From: an uncultured Gammaproteobacteria bacterium
GTDB lineage: Bacteria; Pseudomonadota; Gammaproteobacteria; Arenicellales; Poriferihabitantaceae
DNA: 64,000 nt
NCBI GenBank assembly: GCA_937992195.1
Contig: CALKKV010000007.1
Coordinates: forward strand, 21,581-85,580
Direction of reading: 5' to 3'
Below the pieces are notes generated by a model that saw only the letters and a program-made list of their open reading frames with translations, did no database searches and was not told the DNA's origin. Of this stretch, positions 8,095 to 30,124 are shown one piece after another. Numbering within the stretch: position 1 is the first letter of the stretch; every line of letters starts with the position of its first letter. The position numbers were made by a program, and so were the translations under genes.

Positions 8095-8829
8095 ATGAGC
8101 AAGCTGGATTATATCCGAGTCGTCCTGATTCAACCTAGTCACCCTGGAAATATTGGTGCAACCGCTCGTGCGATGGGTAATATGGGAATATCAAATCTTA
8201 TTTTGGTGAATCCGGCAGATTTTCCCAGTCCGATTGCGAATGCGCGAGCAGCTGGTGCGGATCGGATTTTAGAGAATGCAAAGGTGGTTGGCAGCCTAGA
8301 TGAAGCAATTGCAGATTGTGAACTCGTTATTGGGACGACAGCGCGATCGCGCTCAATTCAATGGCCGGAGGTTTCTCCATCAGGTGCTGCGGAGCGGGTT
8401 ATCGCCTCTGTATCGCGCCATACTGCGTTTCTTTTTGGTCGGGAAAGCAGTGGAATGACCAATGAAGAGCTGGAGCGCTGCCAGTTTCTAATCCGAATAC
8501 CAGTGGACGAAGCGTTTTCTTCATTGAATCTAGGATCTGCGGTAACGGTTATCTTGTATGAAATACGTAAACAGTTTCTTGAGGTTGAAGAGATCGTAGC
8601 AGTTGCCAAGGGTAAAAGTGACCGCTTAGCAACAGCTGAAGAGTTGAGACACTTTTACGAGCATTTACAGCAGTTTATTGAGAAGGTGGAGTTTAGCGAC
8701 GGTCGGTCAACCAAATTGCAACGCAAGATGGCGAGACTGTTTAATCGTTCAGAGATGAATGCGCAAGAGGTTAGGATGCTGAGAGGACTATTTACCTCGG
8801 TTTCAGACAAGCTCGATGGCAAGTACTGA
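8095..8829 (+). CDS. trmJ: tRNA (cytidine/uridine-2'-O)-methyltransferase TrmJ (SpoU/TrmH family)
   Basis: IRVVLIQPSHPGNIGATARAMGNMG, LFGRESSGMTNEEL and SLNLGSAVTVILYE match SPOUT class motifs and align with E. coli TrmJ from the Met at 8095. The track ORF start at 8044 adds 17 aa with no counterpart. Confidence 0.85.
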   Translation: MSKLDYIRVVLIQPSHPGNIGATARAMGNMGISNLILVNPADFPSPIANARAAGADRILENAKVVGSLDEAIADCELVIGTTARSRSIQWPEVSPSGAAERVIASVSRHTAFLFGRESSGMTNEELERCQFLIRIPVDEAFSSLNLGSAVTVILYEIRKQFLEVEEIVAVAKGKSDRLATAEELRHFYEHLQQFIEKVEFSDGRSTKLQRKMARLFNRSEMNAQEVRMLRGLFTSVSDKLDGKY

Positions 8830-8848
8830 CGATTTTACCTATTGGCTC

Positions 8849-9307
8849 TCAGGTAATGTCCAATTGATAGGTGTTCCACATTGTTTTGTTTGAAAGTTTG
8901 TCGTACAAATTTCTCGCGCGATAGTTATCGTCTGCAGTAATCCAGCGTATTAGTGGCCATCCCTTGAGTCGTGCGTGACTCTCTAGTTTGTCGAATAGTG
9001 CCTGAGCTGCGCCACCACCGCGATACTCAGGATCGACAAAGAGATCATCCAGGAATCCGACCTCAGCGCCGCGCAATGGACTGGGCATCGATCTAATATG
9101 TGCAAAGCCAATTAGATTTTCTTTTTCGTCGAGTGCTACAAAACAATCGATCACATGGTGTTCATCGTGAATCCAGCTCCACAATCTTTCCTTTATCTGA
9201 TCGTCCATATAAACTTTGTAGAAAGCGGCGTACCCATCGTAAAGCTTCGACCAACTTCCGTGATCGTCTTTTTTCACTTTTCTTGTTTGAATTGAAAGCA
9301 TTGTCAT
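8849..9307 (-). CDS. GNAT family N-acetyltransferase
   Basis: 152 aa. The acetyl-CoA site LFVDPEYRGGGAAQALF (Q/RxxGxG/A) is present. Its start abuts the stop of the upstream GNAT gene at 9308. Confidence 0.8.
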   Translation of the reverse strand: MTMLSIQTRKVKKDDHGSWSKLYDGYAAFYKVYMDDQIKERLWSWIHDEHHVIDCFVALDEKENLIGFAHIRSMPSPLRGAEVGFLDDLFVDPEYRGGGAAQALFDKLESHARLKGWPLIRWITADDNYRARNLYDKLSNKTMWNTYQLDIT

Positions 9308-10045
9308 TTATAAAATTAGAGTTCTCCCAGGTAAGGCAATATTTGTTAAATCCGAGAGCGAAGCGATTTGTTGTCCATCGGATTTAAAGTTACCCGGGTC
9401 TAGCCATTGGTTAAAAACTCGGGAAAGCACCGGCCACTCACTATCAATAATCGAAAACCAGCTGGTATCTCTGTTATGACCTTTTACCACGGTTGCCTGT
9501 CGAAACTCGCCTTCGTAAGAAAACCCCAATCGCAAAGCTGCATTTCGAGATCGTTTATTCAGGGAATCGCATTTCCACTCGTATCGACGGTAGCCAAGTG
9601 CAAAAACCGTCTCCATCATTAGATACATCGCTTCGGTTGCGGCAACGGTATTTTGCAGGGCAGGAGAATAATTGATATGGCCGACTTCGATAGATCCACT
9701 CTCTGGCTGCAATCGCAGGTAGCTCGCTACTCCGATAGCGCTATTAGATGCTTCATCCACGATAGCGTAGAACATCGGGTCGCGTTTATCTTCAAATTCT
9801 TTGATCCATTGTAAATACGCTTGTTCGCCTGCAAAAGGCCCATAAGGTAGATAATTCCAGATCAAACCTTCAGCATCAGAGGCGTTTGCCAAATATAAAT
9901 CGGTGCCATGTGCGGAAGCTGAAAGTCTTTCCAAACGGCAGGTTCTTCCTGCCATCAACGTTTTATCCGGAATCGCAGGAGGTATCCAACCTTCAACTGG
10001 AGCGCCAACAGGCAGAGTGTTTCTTCGGTAGCTGGTTGCTGACAT
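9308..10045 (-). CDS. GNAT family N-acetyltransferase (RimJ/RimL-like)
   Basis: 245 aa. GSIEVGHINYSPALQNTVAATEAMYLMM, RYEWKCDSLNKRSRNAALRLGFSYEGEFRQ and KGHNRDTSWFS are typical of the RimJ/L-like Acetyltransf_3 group. Confidence 0.8.
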   Translation of the reverse strand: MSATSYRRNTLPVGAPVEGWIPPAIPDKTLMAGRTCRLERLSASAHGTDLYLANASDAEGLIWNYLPYGPFAGEQAYLQWIKEFEDKRDPMFYAIVDEASNSAIGVASYLRLQPESGSIEVGHINYSPALQNTVAATEAMYLMMETVFALGYRRYEWKCDSLNKRSRNAALRLGFSYEGEFRQATVVKGHNRDTSWFSIIDSEWPVLSRVFNQWLDPGNFKSDGQQIASLSDLTNIALPGRTLIL

Positions 10046-10186: not shown

Positions 10187-11611
10187 ATGCGAAGACGTCG
10201 TAAAGCGAAAATTGTTGCGACCCTCGGGCCGGCTAGTTCAACGAAAGAAGTGATTCGAGAGTTGTTTGATACCGGGGTAGATGTTTTTCGATTGAATTTT
10301 AGTCACGGCACCCACGAAGAACATGAAGCTCGACATAAAGCGATACGAGATATAGAGAAAGAGACCGGTAGGCCAATTGGGATTTTGATGGATATTCAGG
10401 GGCCAAAATTAAGGCTCGGAAAGTTCAGTCAAAAGAAGGTCTGGCTTGCAGAGGGCAGTCGATATCGTCTCGATATGGATCCGGCTCCCGGTGATGAAAC
10501 GCGTGCTGAATTGCCACATCCTGAAATCTTCGCGGCCCTTGGTGTAGGCAATGAGCTGTTGATTAACGATGGACGAGTAAAATTAAAGGTAATTGAGCAT
10601 CACAAGGAATACGCAATTACCGAAGTTGTTGTTGAAGGCGAAGTGAGCAGTCATAAGGGGGTTAATGTTCCAGACGTCATACTGCCGATATCGGTGATTA
10701 CGGAGAAAGACCGAGAAGATATTACCTATGGCCTCTCTCTTGGGGTCGACTGGGTCGCTCAATCTTTCGTGCAACAGGCGAGTGACGTCGCCGAACTTCG
10801 TAGTCTGGTGGGCGATGATATTTATATTATGGTGAAGCTAGAAAAACCTTCTGCGCTCGACAATCTAGACGACATTTTGGCTTTAAGCGATGGTGCGATG
10901 GTGGCAAGAGGTGATCTTGGCGTTGAGCTGCCTCCAGAACAGGTGCCGGTAGCACAAAAAGAAATTATCCGACGTTGTCGTAAAGTAGGTAAGCCGGTTG
11001 TTATCGCAACCCATATGTTGGATTCCATGGTTAGTGTTCCAGTGCCGACAAGAGCGGAGGCATCCGACGTCGCTACCGCAATTTATGATGGTGCAGATGC
11101 GGTGATGCTGTCTGCAGAATCTGCTGCTGGAAATTATCCAGTGGAATCGGTGCAAATGATGGATAACATTATTCATGCCGTTGAGCAGGATTCGCTTTAC
11201 ATGAATATTTTGGACGCCCAAAGGCCAAGACCCGACAGCACGGTTGCAGATGCAATTTGTAATTCTTTGCAGAGTATTACCGGTATTTTGTCTTCTTCTG
11301 CAACGGTGACTTATACCACTTCGGGTAGTACCAGTTTGCGTGCAGCAAGAGAACGACCGGGCGCGCCGATTTTAAGTATTACTCCTGAGGTGTCTACGGC
11401 GCGTTATTTGGCATTGGCTTGGGGTGTACATGCCGTGGTGCTCGATGTGGCCAATGAAGACGCCGATTTGCTTGGGGTGATAGAGGCAGCAAAAGATATC
11501 GCTGTAGAGCAGGAATTTGCGAGCTCCGGGCAGGCGATTATTGTTGCTGCTGGTATCCCTTTCGGTATCTCTGGTACCACTAATTCGCTCCATGTCGGAA
11601 CGATTGATTAG
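10187..11611 (+). CDS. pyk: pyruvate kinase
   Basis: 474 aa. RRKAKIVATLGPAS, FRLNFSHG, MVARGDLGVELP and ATHMLDSM signature blocks. Confidence 0.95.
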   Translation: MRRRRKAKIVATLGPASSTKEVIRELFDTGVDVFRLNFSHGTHEEHEARHKAIRDIEKETGRPIGILMDIQGPKLRLGKFSQKKVWLAEGSRYRLDMDPAPGDETRAELPHPEIFAALGVGNELLINDGRVKLKVIEHHKEYAITEVVVEGEVSSHKGVNVPDVILPISVITEKDREDITYGLSLGVDWVAQSFVQQASDVAELRSLVGDDIYIMVKLEKPSALDNLDDILALSDGAMVARGDLGVELPPEQVPVAQKEIIRRCRKVGKPVVIATHMLDSMVSVPVPTRAEASDVATAIYDGADAVMLSAESAAGNYPVESVQMMDNIIHAVEQDSLYMNILDAQRPRPDSTVADAICNSLQSITGILSSSATVTYTTSGSTSLRAARERPGAPILSITPEVSTARYLALAWGVHAVVLDVANEDADLLGVIEAAKDIAVEQEFASSGQAIIVAAGIPFGISGTTNSLHVGTID

Positions 11612-11655: not shown

Positions 11656-12642
11656 TTGAAGGCAGTTTTACTTAAGAATTTTGGTGGCCCAGAAAACATG
11701 TTTCTGGGGGAGGCAGAAAAGCCGCAAGCGAAGACCGATGAAATATTAATACGCGTGTACGCAAGTTCGGTGAATCGCCCGGATATCGTGCAGCGCCAGG
11801 GTAACTATCAACCGCCGCCAGGGGACTCGGAGATTCTCGGATTAGAGGTTGCCGGTGTTGTTGAAGCATTGGGGGAGGGTGCTACCCGGTGGCAGGTGGG
11901 AGATCGTGTGATGGCGCTGATTGGTGGTGGTGGCTATGCCGAATACGCGACCGCACATCAAGACCACGCGATGGGTATTCCAATCGAAATGTCATTTGAG
12001 GAGGCGGCATGTATTTGCGAGACATATCTCACCGCCTTTTTGAATGTGTTTATGCTCGGCAAGCTCACGAATGGACAAACGGCGCTGCTGCATGGTGGAG
12101 GTGGTGGGGTTAATAGCGCAGCAATTCAGCTGTGTCAGTATCTTGTGCCTGATACGAAATTAATTGTTACTTGTTCGAGTGGAAAAGTTGAACGCATGCA
12201 GTCGATGGGGGTAGATCATGTTATTGACTACCAGAACAGTTCGTTTGTAGAAGAAGTTGCAAAGATAACCGATAAAAAAGGGGTGAACGTAATTCTGGAT
12301 CACCTTGGTGCGGACTACCTTGCTGGGAATATGCGTTCTCTCTCTGTTTATGGCAGGTTGTTACAAATTGGTGTCATGAGCGGGGCGAAAGCCGAATTGA
12401 ACCTGGCCGTGATGATGGTAAAGCGTCAGCAGATTATCGGCTCTGTTTTGCGTGCAAGGTCAGTTGAGGAAAAAGCCCATATCATCAGTACATTCGATCA
12501 AAAGGTAGGCGGAGCGCTAAGCAATGGAAAGATTGCTCCAGAGATTTCACACGTTTTTCAATTTTCAGAGGCGGCGGATGCGCATCGAATGATGGAGTCC
12601 AGTCAGCATTTCGGTAAGATCGTGTTAAAACTCATTGATTAA
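11656..12642 (+). CDS. NAD(P)H:quinone oxidoreductase, zeta-crystallin/MDR family
   Basis: 328 aa with a TTG start. VNRPDIVQRQGNYQPPPG, the GGGGGV nucleotide loop, and HFGKIVL at the C-terminus. Confidence 0.85.
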   Translation: MKAVLLKNFGGPENMFLGEAEKPQAKTDEILIRVYASSVNRPDIVQRQGNYQPPPGDSEILGLEVAGVVEALGEGATRWQVGDRVMALIGGGGYAEYATAHQDHAMGIPIEMSFEEAACICETYLTAFLNVFMLGKLTNGQTALLHGGGGGVNSAAIQLCQYLVPDTKLIVTCSSGKVERMQSMGVDHVIDYQNSSFVEEVAKITDKKGVNVILDHLGADYLAGNMRSLSVYGRLLQIGVMSGAKAELNLAVMMVKRQQIIGSVLRARSVEEKAHIISTFDQKVGGALSNGKIAPEISHVFQFSEAADAHRMMESSQHFGKIVLKLID

Positions 12643-12719
12643 TTGGATTAAAGTTAATCTTTTTGATTGTTTGTCGGCAGGCTTTACAAGTGGATACCAG
12701 CGCAGTATGCTTCTTCTGG

Positions 12720-12737
12720 TATTTGGTATACCAAATA
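12720..12737. promoter_or_regulatory. 18-bp perfect palindrome TATTTGGTATACCAAATA; candidate GntR/FCD operator upstream of tctC
   Basis: Read directly from the sequence, 40 bp upstream of the tctC ATG. The core GGTATACC/TGGTATACCA fits the GT-Nx-AC type palindrome used by GntR-family regulators. It is related to the sites at 16154 and 27857. A degenerate copy, TGGATACCA, lies at 12691-12699. Confidence 0.55.
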
Positions 12738-12776
12738 TCAATATTCTAAAAATTAACCTCCAAAGGAGAGTAGAAC

Positions 12777-13784
12777 ATGAAGCTCGTACTAGAATCACTT
12801 AAGAAAGCTGCAATTCCTGCAGTGGTAGCCGCTGCGACAACGTTGGGATTGTCAGCACCTGCTATGGCAGAATGGTCTCCAAAGAAACCAGTGGAACTCA
12901 TCATCATGGCTGGAGCCGGTGGTGGTGCTGATCAGATTGCACGTTTACTACAAGGTTTGATTGAAACCAAAAAACTTTCTCCGCGACCTATTATTCCAAT
13001 AAACAAAGCTGGTGGTTCCGGTGCTGAAGCATTGCGATATATCCAGGATAAGAAAGGCGATGACCATACTATTCTTGTTACGCTCAATAGCTTTTATACC
13101 ACCCCGGTAATTCAAAAGGGTATCGGTGTGGATGTCAGTAACTTCACTCCTATTGGCCGGATGGCAGTTGATAACTTCCTGCTTTGGGTAAACAGTGAAA
13201 TGACAGATATCACTGATCTCGATAGCTACGTTGCGGCAGTAAAAGCTGCAGGTACAGGCTGGAAGGTTGGCGGAACGGGCACAGGTCAGGAAGACTCTAT
13301 TCTTACTGCAATGATGGAAAAAGAGTTTGGTTATGACGTAACCTATATTCCATTTCCTGGTGGCGGAACGGTAGCGAAGAATCTGGTGGGTAAGCACATT
13401 GACTCTACGGTAAACAATCCGGCTGAGCAAAGTGAGTTTTTCCGCGCTGGAAATACCAAGCCTCTAGTTCAATTCACCGCAGAGCGTTTACCTGCATACC
13501 CTGATGTTCCTACAGCGAACGAGTTAGGCGTAAACATGGAGTATTACATGCAGCGCTCTATCAATGGACCTCCAGGAATGTCTGCTGAAGCACAAGAGTG
13601 GTATATCAACCTGTTTGAGCAGCTGTTCAATTCTGAAGAATGGCAGAAGTTCTGTGTAGAAGATGGACTTGCATGCGACACCTATCTTTCAGGTGATGCA
13701 CTGGGTCAATATCACCAGGATCAAATTGCATTGCACAAAGAGCTGATTGAATCAGTGGGTGCATCTGCAATTACCGGAGAATAA
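12777..13784 (+). CDS. tctC: tripartite tricarboxylate transporter (TTT) periplasmic substrate-binding protein, TctC/Bug family
   Basis: 335 aa. Signal peptide ending PAMA-EW, then PVELIIMAGAGGGADQIARLL and NKAGGSGAEA, typical of Bug/TctC proteins. Followed by tctB and tctA. Confidence 0.9.
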   Translation: MKLVLESLKKAAIPAVVAAATTLGLSAPAMAEWSPKKPVELIIMAGAGGGADQIARLLQGLIETKKLSPRPIIPINKAGGSGAEALRYIQDKKGDDHTILVTLNSFYTTPVIQKGIGVDVSNFTPIGRMAVDNFLLWVNSEMTDITDLDSYVAAVKAAGTGWKVGGTGTGQEDSILTAMMEKEFGYDVTYIPFPGGGTVAKNLVGKHIDSTVNNPAEQSEFFRAGNTKPLVQFTAERLPAYPDVPTANELGVNMEYYMQRSINGPPGMSAEAQEWYINLFEQLFNSEEWQKFCVEDGLACDTYLSGDALGQYHQDQIALHKELIESVGASAITGE

Positions 13785-13808
13785 TTCTCCGCTATCGGTG
13801 GATTTGTT

Positions 13809-13924
13809 GTCGTCAGCAGCGGCTGAAATTTAAGGCTGCTGCTTTACGACAGCAATCATACTGATTGCTTCATACCGTTAGTCGGCATACTCGCTGCACA
13901 CAGGGAGTATGCCGCTAGCAATCA
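13809..13924 (+). other. structured intercistronic region between tctC and tctB (several stem-loops with alternative pairings)
   Basis: Stem 1 is GTCGTCAGCAGC (13809-13820) with GCTGCTG..ACGAC (13835-13850). Stem 2 is a 10-bp perfect stem, CGGCATACTC (13883-13892) with GAGTATGCCG (13905-13914). TGATTGCT (13862-13869) is complementary to both AGCAATCA copies (13851-13858 and 13917-13924). Confidence 0.5.
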
Positions 13925-14000
13925 ACATCAACCCTGCTTTTTTCGAGTGTGAGCTCGATGACAAGAAAGTTACGTCTGCATTTTGATAGAGATTGGTTAA

Positions 14001-14510
14001 ATGACTGTAAGAACTGCTGAAATCTGTATGGCCATTCTATTGGCGCTGTGTTCAATTGCCTTGATGTTCAAGAGCGCCGAGCTAAAGATTGGTTGGGTGC
14101 CTGAAAGAGGACCCGGGTCCGGAGCGTGGCCATTTTGGCTTTCAGCCGGCATGTTGCTGACGTGTCTCGCGACTATCTACCGCTGGTTCAAGGGTGTCAC
14201 TCCTGAGTCGAAGAACCTCGAGCCGTTTATGACTAAGGATACGATTTTGGTAGTGGGGGTTTCTGCGGGTTCAATTTTATTCTTGCTGGCTGCGACGCAC
14301 TTTGTGGGTATCTATATTGCGCTGTTTTTTTTCTTATTGTTCTATCTAAGATTTATTGGGCACCATAGCTGGTTGCTAACTATTGTGATGGTGATAGTTG
14401 TGCCAATTATTGTTTTTTGCTTGTTTGAATGGGCATTAAAAATTCCATTACCGAAAGCGATCACTGAAGAATGGTTTTATCCAATCTATGATTTGATGTA
14501 TTCCTACTAA
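14001..14510 (+). CDS. tctB: TTT transporter small membrane subunit TctB
   Basis: 169 aa with 4 predicted TM helices. Its position between tctC and tctA matches TctB-family size and topology. Confidence 0.8.
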   Translation: MTVRTAEICMAILLALCSIALMFKSAELKIGWVPERGPGSGAWPFWLSAGMLLTCLATIYRWFKGVTPESKNLEPFMTKDTILVVGVSAGSILFLLAATHFVGIYIALFFFLLFYLRFIGHHSWLLTIVMVIVVPIIVFCLFEWALKIPLPKAITEEWFYPIYDLMYSY

Positions 14511-14580
14511 TATTTATTCGTTGATTTACAAACACCAACGTAAAACTATTTTCCATCAACATTATTCGTAAAACAAAACA

Positions 14581-16104
14581 ATGGAAGAGATACTGATTCA
14601 TCTTGGAGGCGGACTTGCACAAGCAATGGAGCCGCTGAACTTCACCATGATTATCCTTGGCTGTATGCTGGGGCTGTTGATTGGCGCGATGCCTGGGCTT
14701 GGTTCTGTAAACGGCGTTGCGATTCTGTTGCCGATCACTTTTCTTGTGCCGCCAACAGCCGCTATTATTTTTCTCGCAGCTATTTACTATGGTGCAATGT
14801 ACGGCGGTGCGATTAGTTCGATTACGCTTGGTATACCCGGGGCTTCCACTGCGGTAGCAACGGTGTTTGACGGTAGGCCGTTAGCGCAAGCCGGCCATGC
14901 CGATCGAGCGTTAACCGCTGCTGCTGTCGCTTCATTTATTGGTGGCACGATTTCAGTTGTGTTATTCACTTTATTTGCGCCGCCGCTTGCAGCATTTGCC
15001 CTTAGGTTTGGTCCTGCGGAAGAGTTCGCGTTAATGCTTTTAGCGTTCGCGACGTTTATCGGCTTGGGCGGTGATGATATTCCAAAAACAGTGTTTTCAA
15101 TTTTGATCGGTCTGGTCCTGGCTACGGTCGGTCTGGATATTATTTCCGGACAGCCGAGATTGATTTTTGGCGATATAGATGGATTTCTCCACGGTATTAA
15201 TTTCCTTGTTTTAGCAATTGGAATTTATGGTATCGGAGAGATGCTTTGGACTTTGGAAACTACCCAGGGAAAAGTAACTGTCCACAAAGTGAAAATGTCG
15301 GTCTCTCAGATGAAAAGGAATTTGGGTGATGTAAAACAATATATCGGTACTACCTCACTTGGATCTGTACTGGGTTACTTTGTTGGTACCTTGCCTGCAG
15401 CGGGTGCAACCCCTGCATCGCTAATGTCTTACGGACTTGCGAAGACTTTTTCAAAAGATCCCGAGAGTTTTGGTAAGGGTAATATTGCTGGCGTCGCAGC
15501 ACCTGAGGCTGCAAATAATGCGGCATCAACTGGCTCGATGTTGCCGATGATTACCCTCGGTATTCCTGGATCTCCGACTACAGCTATTTTGCTTGGTGGC
15601 ATGATTATTTGGGGACTGAGACCTGGTCCACTTTTATTTACCGAAAACCCTGAGTTTGTATGGGGGTTGATTGGATCATTGTATATTGCAAATTTGGCGA
15701 CGGTTATCATAAATATTGCGTTTATACCTCTGTTTGTGAAGGTGTTAACTTGTCCGTTTACGATTCTTGCGCCAATTATTTATATCCTTTGCGTGGTAGG
15801 CGGGTATGCGCCGACACAAACTATGCACGATGTTTGGCTTATGCTGCTGTTTGGCATTGTTGGCTATCTACTGAGGAAACTTAATTATCCCGTTGCTCCG
15901 GCTGTGTTGGCGATTGTTTTAGGACCATTAGCGGAGCGTTCCCTTAGACAGTCGCTGCTATCTTCTCAAGGCGAGCTTTCTATCTTTGTTACACGCCCGA
16001 TATCAGCAACCTGTATTGTTATTGCCTTGGCTTTGGTTTTCTATCCGGTATACAAAAAGTTTTCGAATAAACGCGCTGCGGATATGCCGGCGGCGAGCGG
16101 CTAA
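14581..16104 (+). CDS. tctA: TTT transporter large permease subunit TctA
   Basis: 507 aa polytopic protein. GAMPGLGSVNGVAILLP, YYGAMYGGAISSI and GIPGSPTTAILLGG are conserved TctA blocks. Confidence 0.92.
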   Translation: MEEILIHLGGGLAQAMEPLNFTMIILGCMLGLLIGAMPGLGSVNGVAILLPITFLVPPTAAIIFLAAIYYGAMYGGAISSITLGIPGASTAVATVFDGRPLAQAGHADRALTAAAVASFIGGTISVVLFTLFAPPLAAFALRFGPAEEFALMLLAFATFIGLGGDDIPKTVFSILIGLVLATVGLDIISGQPRLIFGDIDGFLHGINFLVLAIGIYGIGEMLWTLETTQGKVTVHKVKMSVSQMKRNLGDVKQYIGTTSLGSVLGYFVGTLPAAGATPASLMSYGLAKTFSKDPESFGKGNIAGVAAPEAANNAASTGSMLPMITLGIPGSPTTAILLGGMIIWGLRPGPLLFTENPEFVWGLIGSLYIANLATVIINIAFIPLFVKVLTCPFTILAPIIYILCVVGGYAPTQTMHDVWLMLLFGIVGYLLRKLNYPVAPAVLAIVLGPLAERSLRQSLLSSQGELSIFVTRPISATCIVIALALVFYPVYKKFSNKRAADMPAASG

Positions 16105-16153
16105 CAGAAATTTTATTAATGTTGAATTCGAAACATAAATCTCGGATGCAGTC

Positions 16154-16170
16154 TTGTATACAATATACAA
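16154..16170. promoter_or_regulatory. palindromic operator TTGTATACAATATACAA in front of the GntR-ThDP enzyme-frc operon
   Basis: 7-bp inverted arms TTGTATA/TATACAA with a 3-bp spacer. TTGTATACAA is itself a perfect 10-bp palindrome. The 15-mer GTATACAATATACAA (16156-16170) recurs exactly at 27862-27876. The site lies 47 bp upstream of the likely ATG of the GntR gene. Confidence 0.6.
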
Positions 16171-16216
16171 GCCACTGGAGCTGTTGAAATTCTTTTATGG
16201 ATGCGAACAAATAAGA

Positions 16217-16918
16217 ATGTCGGAAGACAAACCAACAATCGGCAGTTTGAAACCTCTGGATCTCTATCCTGGATTAAAAGACGCGGTATACCAATCGCTA
16301 AGGGATGCGATTTCCGAGATGGATATTTACTCCGGAATTGAACCTCCGAAATTGGATGAGCGGAAGCTTGCGGAGGAGCTTGGTGTCAGTAGAACGCCAG
16401 TGCGGGAAGCCTTGAGCCGACTAGAACAGGAGGGCCTGGTTGTGACGTATCCACGTCGTGGTGCTTTTGTAGTACGGAAAACTAAAAAAGAAATTATAGA
16501 AATTGTTACGGTATGGGCCGGACTTGAAGGAATGGCTGCGAGACTGGTGACTGAGAATGCCAGTGATCAGGAAATTTCATCGATGAGGGAAATGTTCTCC
16601 ACTTTTGACGCGAGCAATGAAGCGAGAGCGCATATAGACGAGTATTCAAGCACCAATATTGCTTTTCATCAGAGACTGATTGAGTTGAGCAAATGCAAGC
16701 TGTTGATAGATATCGCTGAAAGCTTGTTTGTCCATATGCGCGCGATTCGTCGAAAGACAATTAGCGAGCGAGATCGGGCAACAGAATCGATTATTGACCA
16801 TATGCGGATCATCCAAACGCTTGAATTGCGGGATGCCACGATGGCAGAACAACTGGTTAGAGAACACGCTATGTATTTAGCGGACCATATTAAGAAGTAT
16901 GTTGATTACTTGGATTGA
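16217..16918 (+). CDS. GntR family transcriptional regulator with FCD ligand-binding domain
   Basis: The winged HTH LDERKLAEELGVSRTPVREALSRLEQEGLV is followed by an all-helical FCD-type C-terminal domain (FHQRLIELS...). The start is taken at ATG 16217 because the longer TTG-start ORF (16154) begins inside the operator palindrome. Confidence 0.85.
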   Translation: MSEDKPTIGSLKPLDLYPGLKDAVYQSLRDAISEMDIYSGIEPPKLDERKLAEELGVSRTPVREALSRLEQEGLVVTYPRRGAFVVRKTKKEIIEIVTVWAGLEGMAARLVTENASDQEISSMREMFSTFDASNEARAHIDEYSSTNIAFHQRLIELSKCKLLIDIAESLFVHMRAIRRKTISERDRATESIIDHMRIIQTLELRDATMAEQLVREHAMYLADHIKKYVDYLD

Positions 16919-16951
16919 AAACACACTGAAAACACAAATTGGACAGAACTA

Positions 16952-18688
16952 ATGACAAATAAATCAGATACCGCGCATGATACTTTGGCGCAGAAAGACA
17001 AAAGCGGCAGCGTAATTTCCGGTGGCCACCTGGTTGCCAAAGCGCTAAAGAATGAAGGGGTTGACACCGTCTTTACCCTGTGTGGTGGACATATCATCGA
17101 TATTTATGACGGCTGCATTGATGAAGGTATACGTATTGTAGATGTGCGCCACGAGCAAACCGCAGCCCATGCCGCGGATGGCTATGCGCGACAAACTGGA
17201 AAGCTGGGTTGTGTGGTAACAACTGCGGGGCCAGGATGTACCAATGCAGTGACAGGTGTTGCTACCGCATTTCGTTCAGAAAGTCCTATCTTGCATATCG
17301 GTGGTCAAAGTTCGTTGACCCAACATAAGATGGGGTCGCTACAAGACTTGCCTCATGTTGACATGATGACACCGATTACCAAGTTTGCTTCGGGTGTGTT
17401 CTCTACAGAGCGTGTTGCCGATATGGTTTCGATGGCTGCACGAGAGTGCTTTAATGGCGCTTATGGCCCGTCATATCTCGAAATTCCAAGAGATGTTCTC
17501 GATCGTGAAGTACCGATTGAGTCTGCGACTATTCCTGCGCCGGGATCGTATCGTGCTTCTGTGAAGTCGATTGGTGATCCTGCGGATATTGAAAAACTTG
17601 CCGATATATTGGTCAAAGCGGAACGTCCTGCGGTACTTTTTGGACAGCAGGTTTGGGCTTCCCAAGGACACCATGAGGCGATTCAGTTTGTCCGTGATTT
17701 GGATATTCCCGCTTATATGAACGGCGCTAGTCGGGGCATGTTGCCAAATGATGATCCGCACCATTTTGATCGCACGCGTCGTGACGCCTTCAATAATGCG
17801 GATGTCATTCTTATCGTTGGAACACCGTTCGATTTTAGAATGGGTTATGGCAAGCGAATTTCGAGCAAAGCGACTTTGGTGCAAATTGATCAAAGTTACA
17901 ACACGGTTGGAAAGAATAGAGATATCGACTTAGGAATTGCAGGTGATCCAGGTGCAATATTGGCTGCTGCAGCCCAGGCCGCCAGCGGTCGTATCGACAA
18001 TGGTGCCAAGAAAAAGCGACAGGCCTGGATGAAAGAACTTCGAGAGATCGAGGTAACCAAGCTAGAGAAACTTATGCCGATGTTTACTACCGATCAAAAT
18101 CCGATCCATCCGTATCGGTTGGCCTATGAAATTAATGAGTTTCTCGGAGACGATACAATTTATATCGGCGATGGCGGTGACATCGTAACCATCTCGGCGC
18201 AGGCGGTGAGGCCACGCAATCCTGGGCAGTGGATGGATCCTGGTGCACTGGGTTCTCTGGGTGTTGGAACTGGATTTTCCATGGCGGCAAAGCTTGCGCA
18301 TCCCGATAAAGAAGTGGTTTGCTTATACGGTGATGGCTCTTTTGGTATGACTTCTTTTGATATGGAAACGTCTCAGCGATTTGGTGCGCCGTATCTCGCG
18401 ATTGTTGGAAACAACAGTCATATGAATCAAATTCGATATGGCCAGATTGCAAAATATGGAGAAGAGCGCGGAAACATTGGAAACAAGCTCGGCGACATTC
18501 CTTTCGGTCAGTTTGGTGAAATGATCGGCGGCTATGGAGAAGAGGTAAGAGAAGCCAGCGAAATTCAGCCTGCGCTAAATCGTGCCCGTGAAGCAATTGC
18601 GAAAACAGGAAAATGTGCGGTTGTGAATGTTTGGGTAGATCCTGACGAGTATGCTCCGGGAACCAAAGCGCAAACTATGTACAAGTAA
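16952..18688 (+). CDS. thiamine-diphosphate-dependent enzyme; probable oxalyl-CoA decarboxylase or 2-hydroxyacyl-CoA lyase (specificity inferred from context only)
   Basis: 578 aa with the three-domain ThDP fold. It has an N-terminal Pyr domain (RHEQTAAHAADGYAR, TAGPGCTNAVTG) and a C-terminal PP domain with the ThDP/Mg motif GDGSFGMTSFDMETSQRFGAPYLAIVGNN. Located immediately upstream of frc. The N-terminal blocks look more acetolactate-synthase-like than the OXC sequences I recall. Confidence 0.6.
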   Translation: MTNKSDTAHDTLAQKDKSGSVISGGHLVAKALKNEGVDTVFTLCGGHIIDIYDGCIDEGIRIVDVRHEQTAAHAADGYARQTGKLGCVVTTAGPGCTNAVTGVATAFRSESPILHIGGQSSLTQHKMGSLQDLPHVDMMTPITKFASGVFSTERVADMVSMAARECFNGAYGPSYLEIPRDVLDREVPIESATIPAPGSYRASVKSIGDPADIEKLADILVKAERPAVLFGQQVWASQGHHEAIQFVRDLDIPAYMNGASRGMLPNDDPHHFDRTRRDAFNNADVILIVGTPFDFRMGYGKRISSKATLVQIDQSYNTVGKNRDIDLGIAGDPGAILAAAAQAASGRIDNGAKKKRQAWMKELREIEVTKLEKLMPMFTTDQNPIHPYRLAYEINEFLGDDTIYIGDGGDIVTISAQAVRPRNPGQWMDPGALGSLGVGTGFSMAAKLAHPDKEVVCLYGDGSFGMTSFDMETSQRFGAPYLAIVGNNSHMNQIRYGQIAKYGEERGNIGNKLGDIPFGQFGEMIGGYGEEVREASEIQPALNRAREAIAKTGKCAVVNVWVDPDEYAPGTKAQTMYK

Positions 18689-18810
18689 CGTACAGAAGTT
18701 CGTAAAGAACGGACCCGGTAACGAGATTGAGGCCGAGTCCTTCATGCAATGTGATTCCTGATTTGGAATACACACAACAGATTAACTAATTCCCATTTTG
18801 GAACGAGATT

Positions 18811-20055
18811 ATGAAAGCGTTAGACGGTATCAAGATACTTGATTTCACCCATGTGCAGTCGGGTCCAACCTGCACGCAATTGCTCGGCTGGTTCGGTGCT
18901 GACGTAATTAAGGTGGAACGTCCCGGTGTTGGTGATGCAACGAGAAAGCAGCTCATCGACAAGCCCGGTTCCGATTCACTGTATTTCACCATGTTGAATC
19001 ATAACAAACGCTCTTTGACGCTCAATACCAAGACTGATGATGGCAAAGAAGTTTTGGAACGGCTGATCAAAGAATGCGATGTCATGGTGGAAAACTTTGC
19101 ACCGGGAGCACTTGATCGAATGGGATTTACCTGGGAGCGAATTCAGGAGCTGAACCCGAAGATGATTATGGCTTCGGTAAAGGGTTTTGGACCTGGTCCT
19201 TATGAAGACTGCAAGGTGTATGAAAACGTTGCGCAATGTGCGGGTGGTGCGGCATCGACAACAGGCTTTCGTGATGGGCCGCCGCTGGTAACGGGCGCGC
19301 AAATTGGCGATTCCGGGACAGGGTTACACCTGTGCCTTGGAATCGTGACCGCTTTATTTCAAAGAGAACGGTCGGGGCGCGGACAAAAGGTATTAGCGCC
19401 AATGCAGGACAGTGTACTGAACTTATGTCGGGTCAAACTTCGCGATCAGCAGAGACTGGATGCCGGACCGTTAAAAGAATATTCGCAATTTGGTGAAGGC
19501 GTTGCTTTTGGTGAAGCAACTCCGCGGGCAGGAAACGATTCCGGCGGAGGTCAACCGGGTCGAATTTTGAAATGCCTTGGTTGGGAAAATGATCCAGATG
19601 CCTATACCTACTTCATCACCCAAGCCGCGGTGTGGAAAAATATTTGTGATGTGATTGGCAAGCCCGAGTGGAAGGACGATCCCGACTATGCGACTCCAGA
19701 TGTTAGATTAAATAAGCTCAATGAAATATTTGACACCATTGAAGCCTGGACAATGACGAAAGACAAGTTTGACGTGATGGATATTTGTAACCCGTTGAAT
19801 ATTCCAGTGGGCCCGATTTTGTCGATGAAAGAGTTGGCTGAAGAACCCGCCTTGCGTGACACCGGCACTATTGTTGAAGTGGATCATCCTGAACGCGGTA
19901 AGTATTTAACAGTGGGTTGCCCGGTTAAGCTTTCTGATTCTGAAGTGGACGTTACGCGATCGCCATTATTAGGAGAGCATTCTGAAGAAGTTTTAGCAAT
20001 GCTTGGTTATTCAGAAACCGATATTAGCGCAATGCGTGAATCAGGCGCTATTTAG
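18811..20055 (+). CDS. frc: formyl-CoA:oxalate CoA-transferase (family III CoA-transferase)
   Basis: 414 aa. Long colinear blocks match recalled Oxalobacter Frc: [107 protein letters not shown]. Confidence 0.88.
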
Positions 20056-20066
20056 GAGAATATAAA

Positions 20067-20978
20067 ATGAGAATTGTCGTACACGGCCAGCAGGCTTTCG
20101 GTGAAGCAGTGTTGCAAAAGCTGCTGGATAACAAAGAAGATATTGTTGCGGTTTGTACTGCGCCGGATAAAGAAGGAAGCCCAATAGACCCGTTGAAGCA
20201 GCTTGCATTGGATAATAATCTTCCAGTGCATCAACCCGCTTCATGGAAAACACCTGAAGCGGCAGAATTGATGCATTCTTTTGAGGCCGATGTATGCATG
20301 ATGGCTTATGTCCTGTTGTTCGTGCCATCAGAAGTATTAAACATCCCAAAACATGGGTCATTCCAGTATCATCCGTCCTTGCTGCCGATGCACAGGGGGC
20401 CATCGTCTATAAACTGGCCGATCGCCACAGGGGCTGTCAAAACAGGACTCACTATTTTTTGGCCAGATGATGGTCTTGATGAAGGTCCTATTCTGTTGCA
20501 AAAGACTTGCGACATCGGTCCGGATGAGACCCTAGGTGATGTTTACTTTAATAAGCTATTCCCAATGGGCGTAGACGCCATGATCGAGTCTCTTGATCTG
20601 GTGAAGCAGGGGACTGCGCCAAAAGTGGTCCAAGATCTGTCACAGGGCTCATATGAGTCGTGGTTTGGTAAAAACGAGGCGAAGTTAGATTGGTCACAAC
20701 CGGCGCACCAGGTTTATAACGTTATCCGAGCTGCAAATCCTCAACCTTCGGCCTGGACCACCCATGACGGCAATATTTTAAAGCTGTTCGATAGCCGTGT
20801 TGGCAATGGCAAGGGTGAGCCTGGAGAGGTGGTGAAAGCTAGCGGCAATGAGATTGAAATTGCGGCAGCAGAGGGTTCTATCATTGTAAGCAGAGTGAGG
20901 GCAGATGCCGGAAAAGTCTCTGCTGAAGACTATATAGCCGAAACTGGATTAAAAGCAGGTGCGCGACTGGGCACCTGA
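20067..20978 (+). CDS. formyltransferase-fold protein resembling the N-terminal hydrolase domain of 10-formyltetrahydrofolate dehydrogenase
   Basis: 303 aa. It aligns colinearly with recalled FDH N-terminal domain: GQQAFGEAV, PDKEGSPIDPL, the HG..YHPSLLPMHRGPSSINW catalytic His block, TIFWPDDGLDEGPILLQK with the catalytic Asp, and a C-terminal Fmt-like beta-barrel region. It has no dehydrogenase or ACP-like domains. Confidence 0.75.
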   Translation: MRIVVHGQQAFGEAVLQKLLDNKEDIVAVCTAPDKEGSPIDPLKQLALDNNLPVHQPASWKTPEAAELMHSFEADVCMMAYVLLFVPSEVLNIPKHGSFQYHPSLLPMHRGPSSINWPIATGAVKTGLTIFWPDDGLDEGPILLQKTCDIGPDETLGDVYFNKLFPMGVDAMIESLDLVKQGTAPKVVQDLSQGSYESWFGKNEAKLDWSQPAHQVYNVIRAANPQPSAWTTHDGNILKLFDSRVGNGKGEPGEVVKASGNEIEIAAAEGSIIVSRVRADAGKVSAEDYIAETGLKAGARLGT

Positions 20979-21108
20979 TAGAGAGTTCGACACAGTTACT
21001 TTGAAGATTCAAGGCAACTGCGAGAAAACGAAATGATGTTGAGGGCGTAAGATAAGTTGATGCCCTCTACATGATACTTAACTGCTGGAACTAAAAAGAG
21101 AAATACCA

Positions 21109-22776
21109 ATGAGTGATATTGAGATCGCACGAAAGGCGACGATTAAACCTATCGGTGAAATTGCCAAGCGATTGGATATTCCAAACGAAGCGTTAGCACC
21201 ATTTGGACATACCAAAGCAAAAGTAAACCTTGAGTATATTGATACCTTAAAGGATAAGCCTGATGGCAAGCTGATTCTGGTCACAGCGATTACACCAACG
21301 CCCGCTGGCGAAGGTAAAACCACGACTTCAGTTGGATTAACCGATGGCCTAAATAAAATTGGCAAAGATGCGATGGTTTGCCTACGTGAACCTTCTCTAG
21401 GACCGTGTTTCGGAATGAAAGGTGGTGCCGCCGGTGGTGGTCATGCTCAGGTAATTCCTATGGAGGATATCAACCTTCACTTTACCGGAGACTTTCACGC
21501 AATCACATCTGCGCATAGTTTATTGTCTGCGCTAATCGACAATCATATATATTGGGGTAATGAGGCAGGAATTGATACTCGTCGTGTTGCCTGGAGAAGG
21601 GTGGTCGACATGAATGACCGCTCACTTCGTCAAATCACCAGCTCCCTTGGTGGTGTATCAAATGGTTTCGCTAGAGAAGATGGTTTCGATATCACAGTAG
21701 CTTCGGAAGTAATGGCTATTTTTTGTCTGTCTAAGGATCTCGAAGATCTGCAGCAGCGGCTGAGTAAAATTGTGATCGGATATACCCGTGATAGAAAACC
21801 AATTACTGCTGATGCGGTTTCTGCGCCGGGACCAATGACCGTGTTGTTAAAAGATGCACTTGCTCCGAATCTGGTGCAAACATTGGAACACAATCCTGCG
21901 TTTATTCATGGTGGACCGTTTGCCAATATAGCCCACGGCTGTAACTCTGTGATCGCAACGAAAACTGCGTTGAAGATGGCGGATTATGTGGTGACTGAAG
22001 CCGGTTTCGGCGCTGATTTGGGTGCGGAAAAATTTCTTGATATCAAGTGTCGGAGCGCTGGTTTAGCGCCTGATGCTGTTGTGATCGTTGCCACGGTGCG
22101 TGCCTTGAAAATGCATGGCGGTGTGGGCAAAGACGATTTAGGAAACGAAAACGTTCAAGCGGTGAAAGACGGTTGCGTAAATCTACAAAGACATGTTGAA
22201 AATGTAAAGTCATTTGGGGTGCCTGTGGTCGTTGCAATCAACCGCTTTAGCGCTGACACCGACGCTGAAATGGCCGCGGTTAGAGAAGTTGCTGACGGCC
22301 TTGGCGTTAAGGCAATTGACGCAACCCATTGGGCAGATGGTGGTAATGGCACAACCGAGCTTGCCGAGCATGTTGCTGGTTTGGCTGACAGTGGCGAAGG
22401 TGACTTTTCGCATCTCTATCCATCGGAAATGCCGCTTTGGGAAAAGATTGAAACCATTGCAACCAAGATATATCGCGCAGACGGTATTGCGGCGGATCAG
22501 AAAACAAAAAATCAGATCAAAGATTTGCAGGATGGTGGCTTTGGTAATCTGCCTGTTTGTATTGCCAAGACGCAATATAGTTTTTCTGATGACCCAAGCA
22601 AAAAAGGTGCACCTACGGGACATACTTTACCGGTTCGAGAAGTCAGATTGTCAGCGGGAGCGGGTTTTATTGTTGCCGTGTGCGGCGACATTATGACAAT
22701 GCCTGGTTTACCTCGGGTGCCTGCAGCAAACAGTATTCGTATGAACGATGCTGGACAAGTTGAAGGGTTGTTCTAA
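21109..22776 (+). CDS. fhs: formate-tetrahydrofolate ligase (10-formyl-THF synthetase)
   Basis: 555 aa. [16 protein letters not shown]-loop, [34 protein letters not shown]. Confidence 0.96.
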
Positions 22777-22824
22777 ACCCCAAAACATATTAGCCTGAGC
22801 CCTCATTTATGATGAGCGGTAAAG

Positions 22825-23688
22825 ATGTCGATTCATGCTATTTTGGTCCCCACCGATGGTGGGGACTCACTTCCTAATTTACTCGAAGCGGCGCTGGTCG
22901 TAGCGCGACGTTTCGAAGCACATATCTCGGTTCTGCTGGTTTCTGAGCGGAAAATCAAAAAATCCGCGACCAAAGAGATTTCTAAAGAGCTGCGCAAGAA
23001 CCTGATCGATGAGGAAATGAGTATTCTCACCGGAGTGGCTTCCGAAACAGAGCAGCTAGTGGAAGCGTTTTCCAAACGTCGACGAATTGAATTGACAGAC
23101 CGTCCGATGAAGCAATCTGGCGTAAGTATTTCCTTTCACCATGAAAGGGGAAAGGCGACAGAAATTATGGTTCACTGGTCTAGGATGTTTGACACTACGG
23201 CGGTCATGCGACCAACCTTTAAAAGCGGTTTAGGTTGGCGCAAGGCAAGCAAGCGCTATCATGAATCTATCATGATGCAATCCGGTAGGCCGGTACTCTT
23301 GGTTCCTCCGAAATGGGACGTGCATAAAGCGCAACATGCTGTAGTTGCATGGAATCACAGTTTGGAAGCATCTCGAGCTGTTGCGATGACTTATCCTTGG
23401 CTGGTCCAAATGAAAAAAGTGACTTTAGTCGTTCCCAAAGCTTCTTTGGCCGATGGAGAAAAACTGGTTGAGAATCTGGCATGGAATGGTGCCAACGCAG
23501 AATTAATGCCACTCAACAGACGAACTTCTTCTGTTGGAAGAAGGTTGCTAAAGATCTGTGACAACATTGGTGCTGACTTTCTTGTTATGGGGGGATATAG
23601 CCATTCAAGAGTAAAAGAACGGGTTTTTGGCGGCACCACGGAATACGTGCTGCAAAACAGTCAGATTATCACTGTCATGGTGCATTGA
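22825..23688 (+). CDS. universal stress protein, tandem USP domains
   Basis: 287 aa. ILVPTDGGD at the N-terminus, a second USP repeat beginning HAVVAWNHS, and ADFLVMGGYSHSRVKERVFGGTTEYVL (USP ATP-binding G-2x-G-9x-G[ST]) at the C-terminus. Confidence 0.8.
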   Translation: MSIHAILVPTDGGDSLPNLLEAALVVARRFEAHISVLLVSERKIKKSATKEISKELRKNLIDEEMSILTGVASETEQLVEAFSKRRRIELTDRPMKQSGVSISFHHERGKATEIMVHWSRMFDTTAVMRPTFKSGLGWRKASKRYHESIMMQSGRPVLLVPPKWDVHKAQHAVVAWNHSLEASRAVAMTYPWLVQMKKVTLVVPKASLADGEKLVENLAWNGANAELMPLNRRTSSVGRRLLKICDNIGADFLVMGGYSHSRVKERVFGGTTEYVLQNSQIITVMVH

Positions 23689-23817
23689 TGCGCCAATACT
23701 GTGCCGCTGGATATAGTATTCAACTAATTAATGGTTGGTATAGTTTTTTCAGTTGGTGCGGAGGTTGTTTCGATTTCGCGCAGGATTAAAATATCGCTAT
23801 TTTATTAGGATTTCTGA

Positions 23818-24822
23818 ATGAAGATCTGTGTTGTCGGCGCCGGCGCAATCGGTGGCTTTATGGGGGCGCGTTTAGCCCAGTATGATCATGAAGTATCATT
23901 AATCGCAAGAGGACCGCATCTTGCCGCGATTAAAGCAAATGGTCTCAGGCTAGTGCAGGATGGCGAGGAGATTGTCGCTAAAAATGTTGTTGCCACCGAT
24001 GATATTGCCGAGCTGGGTGTTCAGGACGTCGTATTGATGGCGTTGAAGTCTCACCAAATACACGCTGTCTTGGACAAATTACCCAATATAATTGGCCCTG
24101 AGACCGTAATGGTAACTTTGCAAAATGGAATTCCCTGGTGGTATTTCCAAAAGCTGTCGGGCGACTACGAGAATAGAATTGTAGAGACATCGGATCCTGG
24201 TGGTGTACTTGCAAAAACGATCAATCCTGATTGTTTGATTGGCTGTATCGCCTATCCGGCGGCAACGATTTCTGAGCCCGGTGTTATCCAGCATATTGAG
24301 GGCGTACGGTTTCCCATTGGAGAGTTAGATGGTAGTCAGTCCGCTAGAGCCCAAAAAATTGCAGAAGCGTTTGTAGAAGCTGGATTCAAGTCTCCGGTAT
24401 TGGATGACATTCGTTCCGAGATCTGGCTCAAATTATGGGGCAATCTAACCTTTAACCCGATTAGTGCAATGACTCACGCAACACTGGAGGCAATCTGTCA
24501 ATTTCCACTAACTCGCGAAACCGCAGCGACCATGATGAGCGAAGCACAACAGGTCGCTGAACAGCTGGGTGCCAGCTTTCGGGTGTCATTGGAACGGCGG
24601 ATTGAGGGTGCCGAAAAAGTCGGGAAACATAAGACTTCAATGTTGCAAGACGTTGAAGCGGGTAAACCGCTGGAAATTGATGGAATGCTTGGCGTTGTGA
24701 TTGAGCTTGCTGATATGACTGCGATCCCTGTTCCAACTCTGAAGGCGGTATATGCCTGTGTATCTCTGTTAAACCATACAATGGCTGAGCAAGGTATACG
24801 CATAGAAGGCACTACTGTTTAG
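23818..24822 (+). CDS. ketopantoate reductase (PanE/ApbA) family oxidoreductase; physiological substrate uncertain
   Basis: 334 aa. N-terminal Rossmann MKICVVGAGAIGG, LQNGI, and KTSMLQD in the C-terminal ApbA domain. Only 24 bp separate it from aceK. Confidence 0.8.
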   Translation: MKICVVGAGAIGGFMGARLAQYDHEVSLIARGPHLAAIKANGLRLVQDGEEIVAKNVVATDDIAELGVQDVVLMALKSHQIHAVLDKLPNIIGPETVMVTLQNGIPWWYFQKLSGDYENRIVETSDPGGVLAKTINPDCLIGCIAYPAATISEPGVIQHIEGVRFPIGELDGSQSARAQKIAEAFVEAGFKSPVLDDIRSEIWLKLWGNLTFNPISAMTHATLEAICQFPLTRETAATMMSEAQQVAEQLGASFRVSLERRIEGAEKVGKHKTSMLQDVEAGKPLEIDGMLGVVIELADMTAIPVPTLKAVYACVSLLNHTMAEQGIRIEGTTV

Positions 24823-24846
24823 TTTGCTGTTTGTTGAAGACTCGTT

Positions 24847-26583: not shown

Positions 26584-26621
26584 GAGGCTGAAATAAAATA
26601 CTGCTTATGCGTTTTTTCAGT

Positions 26622-26993
26622 TTACAGAGATGCCGTCACGACCGGCCACTCAAAAAATACTTTTTGCGTCAAAAAATAAACAACTAAAACCTGAGCAAGC
26701 ATTAACGTGGTTCCAGAAAAACGTATGATTTGCATCGTGCTCTCATTCATCTCGCTATTATTCTTTGCCAGCAAACGATAACAGAATACTTGATGTATCT
26801 TCGCTAGTAGCCAGCCAAATAAATTTGAAATAACTAGGCCTAAGGCGATAAAAGTAATTCCCCTAGACGAGAGGATTAACGAGAGTTGTTGTTCGCTCCA
26901 AAAAAGGAATGCCGAGCAGCCAATAAATATCATGCCTGAAAAGTTAATGCGCAACCCCTTGGGAATAGGGAGCCTTGCTTTAAGTGGATTCAT
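26622..26993 (-). CDS. hypothetical small membrane protein (3-4 TM)
   Basis: 123 aa, hydrophobic. Its start codon directly abuts the stop of the upstream FAH-family gene (26994), which suggests translational coupling. I recognise no family. Confidence 0.5.
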   Translation of the reverse strand: MNPLKARLPIPKGLRINFSGMIFIGCSAFLFWSEQQLSLILSSRGITFIALGLVISNLFGWLLAKIHQVFCYRLLAKNNSEMNESTMQIIRFSGTTLMLAQVLVVYFLTQKVFFEWPVVTASL

Positions 26994-27779: not shown

Positions 27780-27856
27780 TTTCTATTGCCTTTGTAGTTC
27801 AAATAATAGGGAAGAGGCTACCAGCTGCTCTCGCTGGTTAACAGCCATATTATCAA

Positions 27857-27878
27857 TTTTGGTATACAATATACAAAA
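27857..27878. promoter_or_regulatory. operator-like element TTTTGGTATACAATATACAAAA in the FAH/sucC divergent intergenic region
   Basis: It contains the same 15-mer, GTATACAATATACAA, as the site at 16156-16170. The imperfect inverted arms are TTTTGGTATA/TATACAAAA. It lies 78 bp upstream of the FAH gene start and 185 bp upstream of sucC. Confidence 0.55.
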
Positions 27879-28062
27879 TTCTAAACACAGGCCTTCCTGG
27901 TTCTTCGTAATCAAATTTATAAAAACTGTAATCACGATAAAACCGACTCTATAGCAACTCTTGCTGTGATATCTTCCATCCGCAGCAAGGCGTTTTGACC
28001 CAACAAATAATTGAGTTTGAGCCGTCTTTTGAGCGTAATAAATAGTTAAAAATTGGAAATCT

Positions 28063-30104: not shown

Positions 30105-30124
30105 GTTTGAAAAGTTAAATGGCG

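Follow-up and report, generated by a model that had tools for sequence, protein, structure and literature searches.

This locus raises the question of whether a short palindrome found in front of three separate sets of genes ties a transporter, a GntR-type regulator with the genes behind it, and a succinate-CoA ligase into a single regulon. The original prediction, made on the window (the whole stretch of 64,000 nucleotides analyzed here), started from the 15-mer GTATACAATATACAA. This 15-mer is indeed present at both places where it had been claimed, 16156-16170 and 27862-27876, and has no third match in the window when up to two mismatches are allowed. Its first copy lies in a perfect 7+3+7 inverted repeat, TTGTATA-caa-TATACAA (16154-16170), and the second is also embedded in an inverted repeat, in which 8 of the 9 arm positions pair. 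The related 18-bp perfect palindrome that had been described in front of tctC, TATTTGGTATACCAAATA, was found at 12720-12737, 40 bp upstream of the ATG of this gene (12777). In shuffled sequences, the 15-mer had 0.11 matches on average, and one shuffle in 100 gave at least two.

The genes around these sites and the putative operators O1, O2, and O3 are listed in Table 1. Frc passes the equivalog of the oxalate-type formyl-CoA transferases (TIGR03253) with 709.8 bits against a cut-off of 504.2, and sucCD pass the NCBIfam models NF001913 (604 bits, cut-off 370) and NF004230 (470 bits, cut-off 336). SucC (28063-29232) also nearly reaches the cut-off of the malate-CoA ligase beta model (593.5 against 604). 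Two distinct types of sucCD occur among the related loci described below, one of which (L004) has both, so that the cluster-linked copy may be a specialized paralog. The regulator gene and the same-strand genes at 16952-26583 probably form one transcription unit. The row ends with a gene for an AceK-like isocitrate dehydrogenase kinase/phosphatase, whose score of 431 bits is under the cut-off of 488. In one relative (L170, 11248-15803), the AceK-like gene has isocitrate lyase and malic enzyme on its flanks, which hints at a link of the cluster to the control of the glyoxylate shunt. The 216-nt gap between tctC and tctB contains a terminator-like hairpin followed by a T-run (13788-13802) right after the tctC stop codon, and this could raise the transcript of the binding protein over that of the membrane subunits. 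A search of positions 12000-31000 for structured RNA gave 0 Rfam matches.

Table 1. Genes and putative regulatory elements of the locus, with their positions in the window.
Feature	Position	Strand	Basis and remarks
pyk	10187-11611	+	Pfam/NCBIfam
Quinone-oxidoreductase-like gene	11656-12642	+	Pfam/NCBIfam
tctC promoter-like element	12683-12711	+	Consensus scan; -35 TTTACA, 17-bp spacer, -10 TATGCT
Operator O1 (tctC), putative	12717-12740		TGGTATTTGGTATACCAAATATCA; four half-sites; includes the 12720-12737 palindrome
tctC	12777-13784	+	Pfam TctC; tripartite tricarboxylate-type (TTT) transporter
tctB	14001-14510	+	Pfam TctB; tripartite tricarboxylate-type transporter
tctA	14581-16104	+	Pfam TctA; tripartite tricarboxylate-type transporter
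Operator O2 (gntR-proximal), putative	16147-16170		Informative part 16154-16170, TTGTATACAATATACAA; three half-sites
GntR+FCD regulator gene (gntR)	16217-16918	+	Pfam; 233 aa
TPP-dependent lyase/decarboxylase	16952-18688	+	Pfam/NCBIfam
frc	18811-20055	+	NCBIfam TIGR03253
Formyltransferase-like gene (fmt-like)	20067-20978	+	Pfam/NCBIfam
fhs	21109-22776	+	Pfam/NCBIfam
usp	22825-23688	+	Pfam/NCBIfam
panE-like gene	23818-24822	+	Pfam/NCBIfam
aceK-like gene	24847-26583	+	Pfam/NCBIfam
123-aa hydrophobic protein	26622-26993	-	Hydrophobic stretches in translation
FAH-family hydrolase	26994-27779	-	Pfam FAA_hydrolase
Operator O3 (FAH/sucC divergent), putative	27853-27876		Informative part 27860-27876, TGGTATACAATATACAA; three half-sites
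sucC + sucD (sucCD)	28063-30104	+	NCBIfam; ADP-forming succinate-CoA ligase type
NAD-type formate dehydrogenase (fdh) subunits	30330-34772	+	Pfam/NCBIfam

The regulator combines an N-terminal GntR winged helix-turn-helix domain (PF00392, 61.9 bits, cut-off 27) with a C-terminal, all-helical, effector-binding FCD domain (PF07729, 71.5 bits, cut-off 24.3), and the solved structures nearest to it are GntR/FCD regulators. Its true start is the ATG at 16217; the TTG proposed by the ORF finder, at 16154, falls within O2. As had been stated, it is the sole GntR-family gene of the window, since a phmmer comparison with all window ORFs found no other. The protein passes none of the named NCBIfam equivalogs, the best being phnR_burk with 106 bits for a cut-off of 271. 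It scores 55 with the LldR model (cut-off 311) and 34 with the PdhR model (cut-off 330), and the UxuR/ExuR models are absent among its NCBIfam matches. It reaches 70 bits with the NanR model NF003011, for which the cut-off is 260, and is therefore not NanR. Full-text literature searches found no GntR regulator of frc/oxc or of a TTT-linked oxalate cluster.

To describe the motif independently of the window, we used 160 related loci, mostly from marine Alpha- and Gammaproteobacteria, which were collected in two scans. The first one, with Frc as the query and one genome per species, gave 80 loci (L001-L080), mostly of marine Gamma- and Alphaproteobacteria; the best matches, up to 86% identical, were from Granulosicoccaceae, Candidatus Spongiihabitans, and Arenicellales. 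The second one searched metagenomes with the formyltransferase-like protein and gave another 80 loci (L081-L160), with a top match at 77% identity. Nearer relatives of the gntR and FAH/sucC loci (L161-L171) were supplied by exact-protein look-ups. The regions upstream of the gntR orthologs have in common a palindrome around GGTATACC. Across the related loci, this sequence is found in the promoters of gntR, tctC, sucC, frc, and oxc, or else at one conserved codon position of tctA. When 108 non-coding sites were symmetrized, the information extended past the core, following the pattern TGGTATnTGGTATACCAnATACCA. This family consensus is a 24-bp composite in which GGTAT-type half-sites, at a spacing of 7 bp, flank a central 10-bp palindrome. 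The latter, TGGTATACCA, has a GT..AC core and is accompanied by a further half-site on one or both sides.

The 24-bp weight matrix was built on the other genomes only, leaving the window out, and four rounds of refinement led to 137 non-redundant sites. In the core of the refined matrix, changes from G to T and from C to A are tolerated at about 13%. We then took the 86 perfect 10-bp cores, irrespective of their flanks, and counted the half-sites next to them. At least one flanking half-site (with at least 4 of 6 matches) accompanies 83% of these cores, for a random expectation of about 7%, and both are present in 23%. Hence, the usual operator has three or four half-sites, as in the window. 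Such additional half-sites point to the binding of more than one dimer.

Scanning the window with this matrix put the three predicted sites first: O1 (12717-12740) with 30.2 bits, O3 (27853-27876) with 19.7 bits, and O2 (16147-16170) with 19.5 bits. From the exact score distributions, chance alone should give 0.009 matches per 64 kb with 19.5 bits or more. For comparison, the related loci offer 1.04 million verified coding positions, the highest-scoring of which reaches 13.6, so that no site of at least 14 bits was found within their verified coding sequence. Elsewhere in the window, over the remaining 50 kb, the motif does not occur. The three sites are thus statistically exceptional, far beyond chance. 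O2 and O3 share changes from C to A, hence the exact 15-mer that they have in common. The same variant is present in another locus (L156), as TGGTATACAATATGCTA upstream of tctC and as TGGTATACAAAATACCA upstream of gntR.

The fourth match of the scan, at 16039-16062 in tctA, has 11.7 bits, a score for which 0.96 matches are expected per 64 kb. It corresponds to GGTATACAAAA (16047-16057), for which a role as a half site had been suggested. This part of the proposal did not hold, since about one match of this strength is expected by chance, the site is within coding sequence, and the DNA is not conserved in L161 or L164. The occurrences of GGTATACC at 14830-14837 (tctA) and 16285-16292 (within the gntR coding sequence) were also discarded, each having less than 8 bits with the refined matrix. 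In L036, L098, and L125, tctA has this sequence at the corresponding codons, which points to coding conservation, and the copy inside gntR has no counterpart in the gntR coding sequence of the other scanned loci. A pair of TATACAA at 50260 and 50269 is inside an ORF and outside the 12 best matrix matches of the window, and therefore scores less than 6.9 bits; it was treated as chance.

One may wonder if the three sites merely reflect a chance likeness of AT-rich promoter DNA, or conserved -10/-35-like sequence, instead of the binding site of a transcription factor. They do include promoter-like hexamers (TACAAT and TTGTAT), and an exact 15-mer repeat is possible in 64 kb, as the shuffles indicated. 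Yet, the expectation of 0.009 per site comes from an independent matrix, and the conserved blocks are 17-24 bp long, palindromic, and of the GT..AC type of GntR proteins. The whole palindrome is conserved rather than one hexamer, and GC-rich Alphaproteobacteria have the same palindrome without any likeness to -10 or -35 elements. We therefore give this explanation almost no credence.

The distribution of the sites in the related loci is informative about the protein that binds them. We counted a gene as having a site when a match of at least 14 bits was present at most 400 bp upstream of its start. Under this definition, sites are found upstream of gntR in 73 of 90 cases (81%), of sucC in 24 of 34 (71%), and of tctC in 27 of 64 (42%). 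The corresponding counts are 2 of 127 for frc (2%), and 0% for the fmt-like gene (0/131), fhs (0/76), tctB (0/57), and sucD (0/29); overall, sites precede 0-6% of the operon-internal genes. The motif is found where three transcription units begin, namely the regulator operon, the transporter, and sucCD, and over about 100 genomes the sites keep to these promoters. The phylogenetic footprinting called for by the original prediction was thus successful, as the motif recurs upstream of the orthologs of gntR, sucC, and tctC. The link that it had proposed between sucCD, 11 kb away, and the transporter and formyl-CoA genes is supported too: with the motif upstream of 24 of the 34 sucC elsewhere, sucCD is a recurrent member of the regulon in other genomes.

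In most related loci, the orthologs of the regulator (37-96% identical overall, 37-78% among the 160 loci of the two scans) head the frc cluster, before the TPP enzyme and frc. The genes tctCBA, sucCD, and fdh are usually near the regulator, in varying order and orientation. In 73 of 90 loci, the motif stands in front of the gntR gene itself, which ties it to this orthologous group. A different possibility is that the operators are real and bound by another FadR-type GntR protein encoded elsewhere, e.g., one similar to UxuR/ExuR, the adjacent regulator having other targets. The core TGGTATACCA is common to UxuR/ExuR-type regulators, which makes cross-recognition by paralogs possible. Furthermore, in L004, L009, and L024, the cluster comprises tctCBA, oxc, and frc, and tctC is preceded by a strong operator, but gntR is missing from the cluster; in these loci, the regulator is encoded elsewhere or another protein binds. 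Nevertheless, we find this possibility very improbable for the window, because the 73 orthologs with the motif before their own gene are spread over two classes of Proteobacteria, the motif travels with the gene cluster and is missing from the remaining 50 kb, and there are no hexuronate genes nearby.

In the nearer relatives, the three operators can be compared with the DNA that surrounds them. The 17-mer of O2, TTGTATACAATATACAA, is identical in L162, L163, and L171, whose GntR proteins are respectively 86%, 96%, and 82% identical to that of the window, while the intergenic DNA around it has diverged to a mean column identity of 48%. O2 is degenerate in L081 (GntR 78% identical) and missing in L161 and L164 (about 90%), where tctA and gntR abut without a spacer. 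Hence, O2 is kept where it is present, yet it is lineage-specific and dispensable in some lineages. O1 is conserved in L162, L171, L081, and L096. The conserved islands upstream of tctC in five relatives are the -35, the -10, the operator, and the ribosome-binding site; the promoter varies except for its -35, CTTTACAA, and its -10, TAT.CT, both of which are unchanged.

O3 belongs to an invariant block of about 21 bp, TTGTATATTGTATACC.AAAT, in L165-L169 (FAH 73-84% identical), where it sits in an otherwise diverged intergenic region of about 300 bp. The FAH gene and the 123-aa gene are kept in these loci as a pair divergent from sucC. In L170 (FAH 63% identical), FAH is also divergent from sucC, with a near-identical O3, TTGTATTTTGTATACCAAAAAT (22.6 bits), and no 123-aa gene was called. 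L170 and L171 are overlapping parts of one contig of 1.0 Mb, in which all three operators are the top matches. The same intergenic region has two more islands conserved in L165-L169, at 27963-27985 and about 27812-27822, which read TTGCTGTGATATCTTCCATCCGC and GAGGCTACCAG on the plus strand. Neither an Rfam match nor a conserved hairpin was found for them, and they may represent the promoter of sucC or the site of a second regulator. A hairpin at 27960-27989 was rejected, being neither significant (z = -1.25) nor conserved.

The position of the operators relative to promoters and genes gives indications on their mode of action. O1 begins 5 bp downstream of the tctC -10. O2 ends 47 bp before the gntR ATG, and O3 is 74-97 bp from the start of FAH and 187 bp from that of sucC. 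Neither a consensus scan nor manual inspection identified a credible sigma-70 promoter at O2 or for sucC. A weak candidate for the FAH promoter on the minus strand (TTGTAT as -35, 16-bp spacer, GATAAT as -10) overlaps O3, and its -10 is weakly conserved in the relatives. The regulator might also activate transcription from O2 and O3, or have a dual role there, e.g., by recruiting RNA polymerase upstream of sucC: O3 is 187 bp away from this gene, no recognizable promoter overlaps O2, and some proteins of the FadR family, FadR included, activate certain promoters. This seems unlikely to us, since O1 is right behind a conserved -10, which is the classic position for a repressor, and the sucC sites of other loci are 30-390 bp upstream without the fixed distance that an activator would call for. 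The characterized FCD regulators of catabolic clusters are mostly repressors released by an effector.

We consider it likely that the GntR/FCD regulator (16217-16918) recognizes O1, O2, and O3 as its operators, in an autoregulated local regulon of three units under a repressor model. That this protein is the one that binds, that it represses, that an operator takes up more than one dimer, and that the effector is a metabolite of the pathway are what we infer from the protein family and the positions of the sites. The first unit would consist of tctCBA, with probable read-through into gntR. The second would comprise gntR, the TPP lyase, frc, the formyltransferase-like gene, and fhs, and probably usp and the panE-like and aceK-like genes. 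The third would be the divergent pair made of FAH with the small membrane protein on one side and sucCD on the other. The dimeric regulator, probably with more than one dimer per operator, would bind in the absence of the effector and repress transcription; at tctC, it would do so from a repressor position, directly after the conserved -10. The protein would leave the DNA once a small carboxylate of the pathway occupies its FCD domain. The regulator would also control the expression of its own gene.

This model has close precedents among known regulators. In the FadR subfamily, a short palindrome centered on GT..AC typically lies over the promoter or just after it, and the effector induces release. 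Operators of the FadR, PdhR, LldR, and DgoR types are palindromes of the form TGGT-Nx-ACCA or TTGTA-N-TACAA. FadR, PdhR, and LldR differ from the system of the window by their N3 spacing, which is N2 here, and by their effectors and regulons. The core coincides with that of a published operator, AAATTGGTATACCAATTT of Escherichia coli UxuR (PMC8092373). UxuR/ExuR have the GntR winged helix-turn-helix and FCD architecture of the window regulator, and their 12-bp core TTGGTATACCAA is identical to the one within O1; relative to it, 1-2 core positions differ in O2 and O3, which have the degenerate cores TTGTATACAA and TGGTATACAA. Given these domains and the UxuR-like core, it is most natural to picture a FadR-type dimer on the 10-bp palindrome. 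UxuR and ExuR, too, act locally on the catabolism of a carboxylate and have a site at their own gene. However, the window regulator is not their ortholog, its predicted targets concern formyl-CoA/oxalate, the TTT transporter, and sucCD instead of hexuronate genes, and the extra half-sites at 7-bp spacing are a feature of its own operators.

For the repeated half-sites, a precedent may be found in E. coli NanR, a FadR-type GntR repressor whose operator is a (GGTATA)3 repeat on which three dimers assemble cooperatively, each of them engaging one consensus repeat and the adjacent non-consensus DNA (PMC8012715). Its GGTATA hexamers at short intervals make it a plausible model for the operators of the window. 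The NanR repeats are 8-9 bp apart and direct, whereas the half-sites described here are 7 bp apart, as direct repeats that form an inverted pair on the two sides of a true palindrome. The cooperativity of the NanR dimers involves an N-terminal extension of the protein. Local, autoregulated FadR/FCD regulators with palindromic operators are a well-known kind, from which the present one departs modestly, by its composite operator and by having sucCD and FAH among its predicted targets.

The window agrees with canonical oxc/frc clusters regarding Frc and differs from them by the TPP enzyme that occupies the position of Oxc. This enzyme has 222 bits with the Oxc model PRK09259, for a cut-off of 557, and is thus not a canonical Oxc; the solved structure nearest to it is that of an actinobacterial 2-hydroxyacyl-CoA lyase. 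In many Alphaproteobacteria, the same slot is filled by a canonical Oxc, as exemplified by Roseovarius sp. 217 (L059), where the gene at 8167-9939 has 962 bits with the same model and cut-off. This looks like a non-orthologous displacement of Oxc by the TPP enzyme, under the same regulator and motif. This regulator and motif go with a canonical Oxc in Alphaproteobacteria, as in L059, and for this reason we regard oxalate, or a metabolite close to it, as the foremost effector candidate. The TTT transporter probably imports the substrate of the pathway.

A broader interpretation would be that these clusters encode a wider, not yet described form of the formyl-CoA/oxalate pathway of marine Proteobacteria, of which a dedicated SucCD and, in this lineage, FAH are integral parts, in which the TPP enzyme resembling 2-hydroxyacyl-CoA lyase has displaced Oxc, and whose regulator acts through several dimers on the half-sites at 7-bp spacing, as a palindromic counterpart of the NanR system. 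SucCD could then supply succinyl-CoA to prime the activation of oxalate, or harvest ATP from CoA-thioester turnover via Frc. We put this forward as a tentative proposal, which is possible and still rather doubtful.

In practical terms, the analysis yields an operator matrix and a regulon definition that can be tested. Both concern a cluster found widely among marine Alpha- and Gammaproteobacteria, in which a TTT transporter and a GntR regulator are combined with Oxc or its substitute, Frc, Fhs, SucCD, and formate dehydrogenase. The predicted co-regulation is functional evidence that places sucCD in the pathway, together with FAH and its small membrane partner in this lineage. Once the effector is known, the regulator and its operator may be usable as a component of biosensors that respond to oxalate or to a related acid. 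The finding leaves the understanding of GntR regulators as it was, and its value lies in the annotation of a widespread marine pathway.
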